From IMG/VR virus record IMGVR_UViG_2563366965_000005: a DNA stretch of 21,726 nucleotides; one strand, given 5' to 3'. A program made the position numbers and the translations under genes. This document shows positions 16,307 through 20,087 of the stretch, piece after piece. This DNA is from a virus. Its lineage: Duplodnaviria; Heunggongvirae; Uroviricota; Caudoviricetes. A model generated the notes under the pieces. The model saw nothing but the letters and a program-made list of their open reading frames with translations, was not told the origin of the DNA and ran no database searches. Within the stretch, counting starts at the first letter, position 1, and every line of letters starts with the position of its first letter.

Positions 16307-17360
16307 GGAGCCTGTACATAGATTTGTGTAATTGCCTGATTTTGATATGTTCAATCCAGCATCAAATGAAGGTTAATTTATGGACGAAAAACAGTTACAG
16401 GCTCTGGCTAACGAACTGGCCAAAAACCTCAAAACCCCTGAAGACCTCAGTCAGTTTGATCGGCTGCTGAAAAAGCTCAGCGTTGAAGCCGCTCTCAATG
16501 CAGAGATGACACACCATCTTGGGTATGAGAAAAATCAGTCCAGACCAGGAGCTAACTCCCGCAACGGTTTTTCCACAAAGACCGTTATCACAGGCGACGG
16601 TCCACTGGAACTGCGTACTCCGCGCGATCGTGACGGTACCTTCGAACCACAACTGGTAAAGAAAAATCAGACCCGTATTACCGGGATGGATAACCAGATC
16701 CTCTCGTTGTATGCCAAAGGGATGACCACCCGTGAGATAGCTGCTGCGTTCAAAGAACTGTATGACGCAGATGTTTCACCGGCACTGATATCAAAGGTTA
16801 CCGATGCCGTGATGGAGCAGGTTGTAGAATGGCAAAACCGACCACTGGATGCTGTTTACCCCATTGTTTATCTTGACTGTATCGTCCTGAAAGTTCGGCA
16901 GGACAGTCGCGTCATCAACAAATCGGTGTTCCTGGCACTGGGCATCAATATCGAAGGTCAGAAAGAACTGCTGGGTATGTGGCTGGCCGAAAATGAAGGG
17001 GCGAAGTTCTGGCTCAATGTGCTGACTGAACTGAAAAACCGCGGTCTGAACGATATCCTCATCGCCTGTGTGGATGGCCTGAAAGGCTTCCCGGATGCCA
17101 TCAACACAGTATATCCGAAGGCCCGCATCCAGTTATGCATCGTGCATATGGTGCGCAACAGCCTGCGCTTCGTGTCATGGAAGGACTACAAAGCCGTCAC
17201 TCGCGACCTGAAAGCGATTTATCAGGCTCCCACGGAAGAGGCAGGCCAGCAGGCACTGGAAGCGTTCGCTGCGGCCTGGGACTGTCGCTATCCTCAGATA
17301 AGCCGAAGCTGGCAGGCTAACTGGCCGAATCTTGCCACGTTCTTCGCTTATCCAACGGAC
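16307..17360 (+). mobile_element. IS256-family (IS1414-like) insertion sequence, 3'-truncated by an IS3-family element
   Basis: Left terminus defined by the inverted repeat with 1-73; carries an IS256/mutator-type transposase gene and an embedded astA ORF; right end and the transposase C-terminus are missing. Confidence 0.8.
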
Positions 17361-17363
17361 TGA
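16380..17363 (+). pseudogene. IS256-family transposase (IS1414-like), C-terminally truncated at 327 codons; stop supplied by the IS3 left end
   Basis: Translation MDEKQLQALANELAKNLKTPEDLSQFDRLLKKLSVEAALNAEMTHHLGYEKN...ACVDGLKGFPDAINTVYP...CIVHMVRNSLRF... shows IS256/MULE-type motifs; the reading frame ends in the TGA that starts the IS3 inverted repeat. Confidence 0.85.
17095..17211 (+). CDS. astA: astA: EAST1 heat-stable enterotoxin-like peptide (38 aa), embedded in an alternate frame of the IS1414-like transposase
   Basis: Translation MPSTQYIRRPASSYASCIWCATACASCHGRTTKPSLAT (4 Cys) matches EAST1 as I recall it (Ala21-type variant); the frame differs from the transposase frame, the arrangement described for IS1414. 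Confidence 0.75.
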   Translation: MPSTQYIRRPASSYASCIWCATACASCHGRTTKPSLAT

Positions 17364-17394
17364 ACCGCCCCGGTAATCCTGGAGACTACACTCT

Positions 17395-17736
17395 TTGAGA
17401 GAGGTAACCAGGATGACAAAACATAACCGATTTCCCCCTGAAGTTCGTCAACGCGCTATTCGTATGGTTCTGGAAAACCAGAATACCTACAACTCACAAT
17501 GGGCCGCTATCTGCTCCATTGCCCCTAAGATCGGCTGCACTCCCGAGACATTGCGTATCTGGATCCGTCAGCAGGAGCCCGTTGATGATGAGCAGAATGC
17601 GCTGACTGCCAGCGAACGCCAGCGTCTGAAAGAACTGGAGCGGGAAGTCCGCGAGCTGCGCCGCAGCAATGATATTCTGCGTCAGGCTTCAGCGTATTTT
17701 GCCCAGGCGGAGCTCGACCGCCACTGGAAAAAATAA
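17395..17736 (+). CDS. IS3-family transposase OrfA (helix-turn-helix / leucine-zipper part)
   Basis: Translation MTKHNRFPPEVRQRAIRMVLENQNTYNSQWAAICSIAPKIGCTPETLRIWIRQQ...ERQRLKELEREVRELRRSNDILRQASAYFAQAELDRHWKK resembles IS629-group OrfA as recalled. Confidence 0.85.
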   Translation: MREVTRMTKHNRFPPEVRQRAIRMVLENQNTYNSQWAAICSIAPKIGCTPETLRIWIRQQEPVDDEQNALTASERQRLKELEREVRELRRSNDILRQASAYFAQAELDRHWKK

Positions 17737-18623
17737 TGCCGCTTCTGGAAAATCTGAGCGGTGAACACGGGGTCGGGCCAGTCTGTCATGAGCTGGATAT
17801 TGCTCCGTCAACGTACTACTGGCATCAGCAACGCCGGAAGTGTCCTGAACGACGCAGTAGTCGGGATAAACGCGATGCCGTGCTGATACCTGAGATACAG
17901 CGCGTATACGAAGAAAACTACAGCGTTTACGGTGTGCGTAAGGTCTGGCGACAGCTAAAACGTGAAGGTGTCGGCGTTGCCCGCTGCACCATTGAGCGCC
18001 TGATGAAAGCCCTGCAGCTACGTGGGGTGACACGCGGCAAAAGTGTCAGAACCACCCGCAGCAACAAAGCCGAAACACCGCAGGATCGGGTGAACCGGCA
18101 GTTCGTGGCTGAACGGCCCGATAGTCTTTGGGTGGCCGATTTTACCTACGTCAGCACCTGGCAGGGGTTCGCATATGTGGCCTTCATCATTGATGTGTTC
18201 GCCGGTGTTATCGTGGGCTGGCGGGTCTCATCCACGATGGAAACGTCGTTCGTGCTGGATGCACTGGAGCAGGCGCTGTGGGCCAGACGCCCGAGCGGTA
18301 CCATCCATCACAGCGACAAAGGTTCGCAATATGTGTCACTGGCGTACACGCAACGGCTGCAGGACGCGGAGCTGCTGGCTTCAACAGGCAGCACGGGCGA
18401 CTCATATGACAATGCGATGGCAGAAAGTATCAACGGGTTGTACAAAGCGGAGGTGATCCACAGGCAAAGCTGGAAAACCCGACAGGATGTTGAGCTGGCT
18501 ACGCTGAAATGGGTGGACTGGTACAATAATCACCGATTGATGGAACGGACCGGATATATCCCGCCAGTGGAGGCAGAAAAAGCCTATTACGCTTCGCTGA
18601 ATGACCGGGATGTGGCAGCCTGA
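17736..18623 (+). CDS. IS3-family transposase OrfB (DDE catalytic domain), expressed with OrfA by programmed -1 frameshift
   Basis: Translation contains the DDE integrase core (...WVADFTYVSTWQGFAYVAFIIDVFAG...HHSDKGSQYVS...DNAMAESINGLYKAE...); frame is -1 relative to orfA with an A-run (17728-17733) at the overlap. Confidence 0.85.
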   Translation: MPLLENLSGEHGVGPVCHELDIAPSTYYWHQQRRKCPERRSSRDKRDAVLIPEIQRVYEENYSVYGVRKVWRQLKREGVGVARCTIERLMKALQLRGVTRGKSVRTTRSNKAETPQDRVNRQFVAERPDSLWVADFTYVSTWQGFAYVAFIIDVFAGVIVGWRVSSTMETSFVLDALEQALWARRPSGTIHHSDKGSQYVSLAYTQRLQDAELLASTGSTGDSYDNAMAESINGLYKAEVIHRQSWKTRQDVELATLKWVDWYNNHRLMERTGYIPPVEAEKAYYASLNDRDVAA

Positions 18624-18704
18624 TCACTCAGGCAAAATACTCTCCAGGAAAACCGGAGCGGTTCAGTTGATGTTCTCCAGTCATCAGAAACACAAACTGA
18701 TGCA

Positions 18705-20087
18705 GTGGAAACTGAGGTATCTGATATCCCAAAAAATGAAACCGCGCCGGAAGCTGAACCATCTGTAGAGCGTGAGGGGCCGTTCTATTTCCTCTTCGCA
18801 GATAAGGACGGAGAAAAATACGGTCGCGCAAACAAACTCTCTGGTCTGGATAAGGCACTGGCTGCTGGCGCCACTGAAATCACAAAAGAAGAATATTTTG
18901 CCCGAAAAAATGGCACATACACGGGCTTACCGCAAAATGTAGATACCGCTGAAGATTCAGAACAACCAGAGCCGATAAAAGTTACCGCTGACGAAGTAAA
19001 CAAAATTATGCAGGCAGCCAATATCAGCCAGCCTGACGCCGATAAGTTGCTTGCTGCATCACGTGGTGAATTTGTTGAAGGGATTAGTGACCCGAATGAT
19101 CCGAAATGGGTTAAGGGGCTCCAGACCCGCGATTCTGTGAACCAGAACCAGCATGAATCGGAACGGAACTACCAAAAAGCGGAACAAAACAGTCCAAATG
19201 CGTTACAAAACGAGCCAGAAACGAAACAGCCTGAACCAGTAGCGCAACAGGAAGTGGAAAAAGTCTGCACCGCCTGCGGTCAGACCGGCGGCGGCAACTG
19301 CCCTGATTGTGGCGCGGTGATGGGCGACGCAACATACCAAGAAACATTCGATGAAGAGTATCAGGTTGAAGTTCAGGAAGATGATCCGGAGGAAATGGAA
19401 GGCGCTGAACATCCACACAAGGAGAACACTGGCGGCAATCAGCATCACAATAGCGATAATGAAACTGGCGAGACGGCAGATCACCCAATTAAGGTGAACG
19501 GTCATCGCGAAATCACATCCACCAGCAGGACGTGTGACCATCTAATGATCGACCTTGAAACCATGGGAAAAAATCCTGATGCCCCGATCATCTCAATAGG
19601 TGCAATATTTTTCGATCCGCAAACCGGAGATATGGGACCGGAATTTAGTAAGACTATCGATCTGGAAACTGCTGGCGGAGTCATTGATCGGGACACCATT
19701 AAATGGTGGCTTAAGCAATCACGCGAAGCGCAATCTGCCATTATGACCGATGAAATCCCGTTAGATGATGCACTGTTACAATTGCGAGAATTTATCGACG
19801 AAAACTCCGGTGAATTTTTTGTTCAGGTTTGGGGAAATGGAGCCAACTTCGACAACACGATTTTGCGCCGTTCATACGAACGGCAGGGGATCCCCTGCCC
19901 GTGGCGTTACTACAACGATCGCGATGTACGCACAATCGTTGAGCTGGGGAAAGCCATAGACTTCGATGCCAGAACGGCTATTCCATTCGAAGGTGAGCGC
20001 CATAATGCACTTGATGACGCCCGTTACCAGGCAAAATACGTTTCAGTTATCTGGCAAAAACTGATCCCGAGTCAGGCTGATTCTTAA
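18705..20087 (+). CDS. Phage exonuclease-like protein with C-terminal DEDDh (DnaQ-like) 3'-5' exonuclease domain; 5'-truncated by the IS3 element
   Basis: C-terminal region [23 protein letters not shown]...[17 protein letters not shown]...[13 protein letters not shown] carries DEDDh motifs; central Cys4 motif [16 protein letters not shown]; the frame is open upstream to the IS3 boundary at 18666; the track start is a GTG. Confidence 0.6.

Follow-up and report, generated by a model that had tools for sequence, protein, structure and literature searches.

The 21,726-nucleotide stretch of DNA analyzed here (IMG/VR record IMGVR_UViG_2563366965_000005; the window in what follows) contains a Qin-type cryptic prophage of Escherichia coli adjoining rspB, in which an insertion sequence (IS) of the IS3 family stands between a truncated IS1414 and a truncated exonuclease gene, exo. 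This IS probably marks a deletion of 4,812 bp that is specific to one strain and struck a prophage already in advanced decay. A preliminary description of the window had proposed that an IS-mediated adjacent deletion at this point removed the remainder of IS1414 and the whole early region of the prophage. The features on which the argument rests are as follows.

17361-18665, plus strand: complete IS3-family element of 1305 bp, with 100%-identical full-length copies elsewhere.
16308-17360, plus strand: truncated IS1414 (IS256 family), with the left 1053 of 1315 bp kept and the right 262 bp and right inverted repeat gone.
18666-20087, plus strand: 3′ remnant of the Qin exonuclease gene, comprising codons 351-823 and the stop codon, with the Rv2179c-like 3′-5′ exonuclease domain kept.
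Left junction: …TTATCCAACGGAC joined to TGAACCGCCCCGG…
Right junction: …CCGGAGCGGTTCA joined to GTTGATGTTCTCC…

Both junctions together were found only in strain 1332KP when 5,426 complete E. coli genomes were searched with a 2.3-kb junction query; the chromosome of this strain (NZ_CM173849.1) is identical to the window except for 3 single-nucleotide polymorphisms (SNPs). An IS1414 just downstream of flxA was detected in four other genomes, and in two of these, LAU-OXA and MINF_8D, it occupies exactly the site seen in the window. In both strains this IS1414 is intact and the sequences that flank the IS3-family element in the window lie 4,812 bp apart. Window 5397-17360 corresponds to 3268-15230 of the LAU-OXA locus (L005) and window 18666-21726 to 20043-23103 of the same locus, in colinear order and at 99.93-99.97% identity, while L005 15231-20042 (4,812 bp) is replaced by the IS in the window. 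The replaced segment begins with the final 262 bp of IS1414 and ydfW, continues through a pseudogene for part of an ISNCY transposase, two more pseudogenes, a small gene for a SAM-dependent methyltransferase and what is left of DUF977, and ends with the initial 570 bp of an exo remnant of 1992 bp; most of it is pseudogenes. The two flanks were not contiguous in any related genome, and microhomology at the IS junctions did not exceed 1 bp. A single IS with intact ends and no target-site duplication lies between flanks that are colinear but separated in relatives. Because LAU-OXA and MINF_8D share the IS1414 site and carry the two flanks 4,812 bp apart and colinear, the junction is a genuine IS-associated deletion.

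The ends of the element, at 17361 (TGAACCGCC...) and 18665 (...GCGGTTCA), could be set to the base, since in other genomes sequence shared with the window at 100% identity covers precisely these 1305 bp and stops on both sides where the flanks begin. The window copy is flanked by ...CCAACGGAC on the left and GTTGATG... on the right, and neither 3 bp (GAC versus GTT) nor 4 bp (GGAC versus GTTG) are duplicated, in agreement with the preliminary description. This absence is meaningful because the same element is bordered by perfect 3-4 bp duplications at six other independent sites (CAC, ACT, GTG, CTT, GAA and CCAA); the chance of a random 3-bp match is 1/64. Duplications were thus present at 6 of 9 independent sites, and the three copies without one are those of the window, of a 1332KP plasmid and of plasmid pSYM5/6. 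The plasmid copies lie at L004 4001-5305 in 1332KP (flanks AGA/GTC) and at L018 1501-2805 in pSYM5/6 (TAC/TGG). The 1332KP plasmid copy has no Qin-related sequence on either side: it lies between a hypothetical gene that closely follows mobI and a truncated IS3; since this copy adjoins a truncated IS3, it probably marks another IS-associated rearrangement junction.

On the left side, the deletion removed the end of an IS1414 whose remnant is 100% identical over 1053 bp to a second, intact IS1414 of this prophage. The remnant begins at 16308 with the left end GAGCCTGTACATAG, and the intact element of LAU-OXA spans L005 14178-15492. The remnant matches the transposase profiles NCBIfam NF033543 and Pfam PF00872, and has the features of IS1414: a Mutator-type transposase of 402 amino acids when intact (a gene of 1209 bp), astA in another frame, terminal repeats, of which the right one is missing from this copy, and 8-bp duplications around other copies. 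Two open reading frames (ORFs) remain in it.

16380-17363, plus strand: truncated IS1414 transposase ORF, 327 of 402 codons, with the stop codon TGA (17361-17363) supplied by the first three bases of the IS3-family element.
17095-17211, plus strand: intact astA (EAST1 heat-stable enterotoxin) ORF inside the retained part of IS1414, translation MPSTQYIRRPASSYASCIWCATACASCHGRTTKPSLAT followed by the stop.

Truncation of the transposase at codon 327, with termination at the TGA of the incoming element, had been reported in the preliminary description and was borne out by comparison with the 402-codon gene. The astA ORF is 100% identical to a gene annotated as astA on plasmid pLAO40. Since its right end is gone, the truncated IS1414 can no longer transpose.

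On the right side, position 18666 corresponds to codon 351 of the intact 823-codon exonuclease gene. No stop codon interrupts the exonuclease frame between 18624, the first base past the stop of the IS transposase gene orfB, and 20087, so that it runs unbroken over the boundary at 18666; the preliminary description was therefore correct in reporting an open frame up to the IS. The orfB gene and the exonuclease remnant are in the same frame, with one TGA (18621-18623) between them, an agreement with a 1/3 chance of arising that is probably a coincidence.

Each flank represents half of a target site of the element, that on the left in IS1414 (target GAC) and that on the right in exo (target GTT). 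We infer an ancestor resembling LAU-OXA and MINF_8D, which would have carried, in this order, flxA, intact IS1414, ydfW, the partial ISNCY transposase pseudogene, two pseudogenes, the SAM-dependent methyltransferase gene, truncated DUF977, the 1992-bp exo remnant, xis and int. An identical copy resides on a plasmid of the same strain and was probably the source of the element. It would first have inserted at one of the two sites, and a further local insertion would have placed a second copy, as a direct repeat of the first, at the other. The interval would then have been excised by homologous recombination between these two repeats, with a single IS and mismatched half-duplications left behind. 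Transposition of IS3-family elements proceeds by a copy-out-paste-in pathway via a circle that regenerates the donor, and adjacent deletion needs an additional reaction (bioRxiv 10.1101/2023.06.07.543989). In the classic precedent for the IS3 family, deletions of the rbs operon at IS150 have been ascribed to recombination between two identical elements (PMC4173774).

Several points weigh against this scheme. No intermediate, that is, an IS with a duplication at one or both sites, was found in the 5,426 complete E. coli genomes, in two metagenome pattern scans (one for each hypothetical intermediate junction) or among the plasmids of PLSDB, and for this reason the order of events and the two-step route are put forward by inference. 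The scheme also requires the element to have entered the same 4.8 kb twice in a chromosome of 4.87 Mb. The ancestral state is derived by parsimony from relatives rather than from a direct ancestor, and the repeated independent insertion of IS1414 at this spot somewhat weakens the shared site as a marker.

A credible, if less probable, alternative is a one-step adjacent deletion, in which a single resident copy used one of its ends to attack a nearby site on the same molecule, perhaps by "sloppy" strand transfer and possibly aided by the IS-excision enhancer IEE, so that no second copy ever existed. It leads to the same sequence outcome (one IS, intact ends and no duplication), a single hop into Qin suffices, and its far endpoint would lie beside a site used independently by a sister IS. 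The junction microhomology of at most 1 bp speaks against a contribution of IEE, which has been described as a microhomology-mediated end-joining enzyme (PMC9943667). The two routes yield the same product and cannot be separated from the sequence alone; on balance, we slightly favor two insertions followed by recombination over an intramolecular event. Of the adjacent deletion proposed in the preliminary description, the real, IS-associated junction thus stands, given the missing duplication and the colinear flanks 4,812 bp apart in LAU-OXA, whereas the one-step mechanism is possible rather than demonstrated.

The extent of the deletion required a larger correction. Relative to the intact Qin-like prophages of isolate 10 (OW968288) and UPEC85, the window lacks the early region. 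In LAU-OXA, MINF_8D, AH21 and P13-6, truncated DUF977 is joined to truncated exo by a deletion of about 4.6 kb whose junction lacks an IS. This older deletion removed part of DUF977, a replication-region gene, a ydaT-family gene, dicC, dicA, ydfA/B/C, dicB, ydfD and 488 bp of exo. Its junction has an imperfect microhomology of about 10 bp, GTA[G/T]CCGGAG (L005 19481-19490; L006 21947-21956 and 26567-26576), and occurs in 90 of the 5,426 genomes. The ancestor of the window falls inside the lineage with this deletion on the basis of two independent markers, the IS1414 site shared with LAU-OXA and MINF_8D and a junction between a terminase fragment and the gene for minor tail protein L shared with P13-6. 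Since the closest relatives already lack the dicA-dicB block, the event at the IS of the window explains the loss of 4,812 bp only. The preliminary description was right that the remainder of IS1414 and more of the 5′ end of exo are missing, as the comparison with LAU-OXA indicates; the immunity and replication genes, dicB and the initial 488 bp of exo had been lost earlier, as judged from the DUF977-exo junction in LAU-OXA, MINF_8D and P13-6.

Isolate 10 and UPEC85 were considered as representatives of the ancestral arrangement and rejected. Their IS1414 copies are located at other sites, 12 and 23 bp away, with 8-bp duplications of their own (ACTTTTCG and TCAGCCTT, respectively), and are independent insertions because they differ in position and carry their own duplications. 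A single IS-associated deletion of about 9.4 kb, in which immunity, replication, dicB, ydfD and the 5′ end of exo were lost together from an ancestor with an intact early region, is for the same reason unlikely. Such an event is compatible with the sequence taken alone, since the older deletion contains neither of the endpoints seen in the window, and isolate 10 and UPEC85 do combine an IS1414 3′ of flxA with intact dicC-dicA-dicB-exo. These IS1414 copies, however, are the independent insertions just described, and the strains that share the exact IS1414 site (LAU-OXA and MINF_8D) or the terminase-tail L junction (P13-6) with the window all have the DUF977-exo junction already, as do 90 genomes in total.

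An inversion, a translocation or an assembly artefact at a repeated IS, with the "missing" DNA located elsewhere, is very improbable. The same strain does carry an identical IS on a plasmid, and that copy also lacks a duplication. The order and orientation of the flanks, however, are those of the relatives, just 4.8 kb closer together; the IS occurs once in the chromosome of 1332KP, and its plasmid copy has non-Qin sequence on both sides. The window and the 1332KP RefSeq entry are different records, separated by the 3 SNPs, with the same structure. No reciprocal junction was found, as judged from the single chromosomal IS copy and the non-Qin flanks of the plasmid copy, the whole genome not having been scanned for the lost 4.8 kb; this argues that the event was a deletion and not an inversion. 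Insertion of the IS into a junction already made by another deletion is the least probable explanation of all, since an ordinary insertion would have duplicated 3-4 bp, as at the six other sites, and the corresponding IS-less junction (...CCAACGGAC joined to GTTGATG...) was present in no genome searched.

The element itself is a complete member of the IS3 family, and the recognizable inverted repeats reported in the preliminary description were confirmed. The terminal repeats are imperfect, 28 bp long and of the 5′-TG...CA-3′ type (TGAACCGC... on the left and ...GCGGTTCA on the right). Two genes, orfA with a helix-turn-helix (HTH) domain and orfB with a DDE/rve domain, are joined by a programmed -1 frameshift, with a frameshift-stimulating RNA structure, the ALIL pseudoknot, 3′ of the slippery site.

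17361-17388, plus strand: left inverted repeat, TGAACCGCCCCGGTAATCCTGGAGACTA.
18638-18665, minus strand: right inverted repeat, identical to the left repeat at 24 of 28 positions.
17413-17736, plus strand: orfA (HTH_Tnp_1, PF01527), with an A6 run at 17728-17733 followed by TAA.
17736-18623, plus strand: orfB (HTH_21 and rve integrase core, the DDE domain; PF13276, PF00665 and NF033516).
17691-17807, plus strand: ALIL frameshift-stimulating pseudoknot (Rfam RF01497; 93.3 bits versus a gathering score of 50).

The RefSeq entry for 1332KP likewise joins orfA and orfB by programmed frameshift, and names the element merely as "IS3 family transposase." The 100%-identical full-length copies reside on other E. 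coli chromosomes and on plasmids. The element was also found in Mixta, Izhakiella, Chimaeribacter, Pseudescherichia and Enterobacter; a scan of the left IS end in one genome per species yielded four loci, one of them full length (Mixta theicola, 99.9% identity, duplication CCAA). No sigma-70-like outward promoter that could serve the exo remnant, xis and int was found in 17250-18850.

The closest comparison is with a sister element that we take to be IS629, presumably of the IS51 subgroup. Identity of the 1305-bp element to IS629-like elements, including a 1310-bp copy in AH21, ranges from 74% (blastn) to about 77.5% (megablast). The IS629/IS1203 type resembles the window element in its near-identical terminal repeats (TGAACCGCCCCGG[G/T]AATCCTGGAGACTA...), orfA/orfB layout, ALIL pseudoknot and 3-4 bp duplications, as well as in its preference for prophages and other IS elements and its many copies without matching duplications. 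It differs in sequence (74% to about 77.5% identity) and in length (1310 versus 1305 bp), and because of this low identity and length difference the window element is a distinct IS. In E. coli O157, matching duplications were reported for 21 of 47 IS629 copies, which were concentrated in prophages and "IS islands" (PMC3271280).

Insertions of IS629-like elements were found near both junctions. In AH21, the 1310-bp sister element (L002 12003-13312) is a simple insertion with the duplication CAC, 4 bp from the position of the right junction. A sister element in the IS1414 of pLAO40 (L019 3272-4580) has the duplication AAG and lies 10 bp from the left junction, and an IS629-like element on p19KM2326_1 (L007 3422-4731), with the duplication ATA, lies about 23 bp upstream of the left-junction position in another IS256-family element. 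Thus, two elements that are about 75% identical inserted within 4 bp of one another in Qin exo, and in the 3′ part of transposase genes of the IS256 family three landings (window, pLAO40 and p19KM2326_1) cluster in about 36 bp. These nearby insertions fit with both window junctions being targets chosen by the transposase. It is a more doubtful proposition that both junctions lie in insertion hotspots shared by IS629-group elements, with a conserved target preference steering the decay of prophages and IS elements. The nearby cases were drawn from colinear BLAST alignments and are subject to ascertainment bias; in a less biased check, the 321 bp surrounding the exo site were matched over 80% or more of their length in all but 15 of 3,611 genomes, and interruptions there are therefore rare. 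As proof of a hotspot, these insertions were accordingly downgraded: the cases are biased, and the 4-bp coincidence is suggestive (rough p of about 0.03-0.25). The target specificity of IS629 "remains unknown," with no consensus target (PMC3271280). The possible shared target preference is the one modestly useful lead.

Three other systems offer partial parallels. In the long-term evolution experiment with E. coli, deletions of the rbs operon associated with IS150 likewise leave a single copy of an IS3-family element at their edge; those deletions, however, are recurrent, selected and were seen experimentally, whereas the window holds one natural allele, with neither intermediates nor evidence of selection. 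In enterohemorrhagic E. coli O157, IEE-dependent deletions adjacent to IS629 are of variable size, extend from one IS end and often occur in prophages (PMC9943667). The window resembles them in having a deletion beside an element of the IS629 group within a prophage, and differs in that its IS is fully retained and its junction microhomology is 1 bp or less. The Qin prophage of K-12 MG1655 (exo′-′IS2-′int) is the same prophage at the same site next to rspB, with the same exonuclease gene truncated beside an IS3-family element in association with a deletion. K-12 kept dicA-dicB but is missing the 3′ portion of exo, some of IS2 and the 5′ portion of int, whereas the window lost the 5′ part of exo and has intact xis and int and a complete IS. 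In K-12 (L022 12492-15122), exo is cut on its 3′ side and adjoins a truncated IS2 and a truncated integrase gene, an instance of independent decay at the same locus.

IS1414 has also been active in these prophages. It inserted at least three times independently in 23 bp just downstream of flxA (window 16281-16320, the flxA terminator region): at the site common to the window, LAU-OXA and MINF_8D, and at the separate sites in isolate 10 (duplication ACTTTTCG) and UPEC85 (duplication TCAGCCTT). These insertions suggest a local IS1414 hotspot at the GGCCC...GGGCC hairpin downstream of flxA. At the left junction of the truncated copy, the window and LAU-OXA differ by one G. Bases 1-72 of the window are the end of a second, intact IS1414, which is flanked by the 8-bp duplication CTTCCTTG and is inverted with respect to the truncated copy. 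LAU-OXA carries an IS1414 between pinQ and tfaQ, about 45 bp away and in the opposite orientation, with the duplication TCGGTGTG; the copy at the window start and this copy are independent insertions in the same short interval.

The remainder of the window shows the decay of a Qin-type prophage. The gene order is:

tfaQ, tail and terminase remnants, nohA, cspI, lysis genes, cspB/F, ydfT/U, rem, hokD, relBE, ydfV, flxA, truncated IS1414, IS3-family element, truncated exo, xis, int.

RefSeq already annotates every component of the junction region (IS256-like IS1414, partial; IS3 family transposase and pseudoknot; partial 3′-5′ exonuclease). In the late region, a tail-fiber fragment (703-909), a partial TipJ gene (1002-3101) and a fusion of minor tail protein L to a terminase fragment (about 5144-5389) were observed. 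The terminase-tail L junction is common to the window and the porcine strains P13-6, VG48B2 and ETEC4073/1706/1716. The three differences between the window and the 1332KP RefSeq entry are A-to-G changes at 784, 790 and 796, with an exact 6-bp spacing, in a tail-fiber gene remnant; LAU-OXA and P13-6 carry the A version. These changes could be a sequencing or polishing artefact, a gene-conversion patch or the mark of a different isolate.

The consequences of the deletion would have been the loss of 262 bp of IS1414, ydfW, the methyltransferase gene, several pseudogenes and a further 570 bp of exo, with no function gained. IS1414 was immobilized while astA stayed intact. The loss of dicA and dicB is no longer ascribed to the IS in the window. 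Collectively, the junction is a case of ordinary, known IS-driven prophage erosion with no new mechanism: it records a further stage in the decay of cryptic Qin within a single clinical lineage of E. coli, and is of little wider importance.

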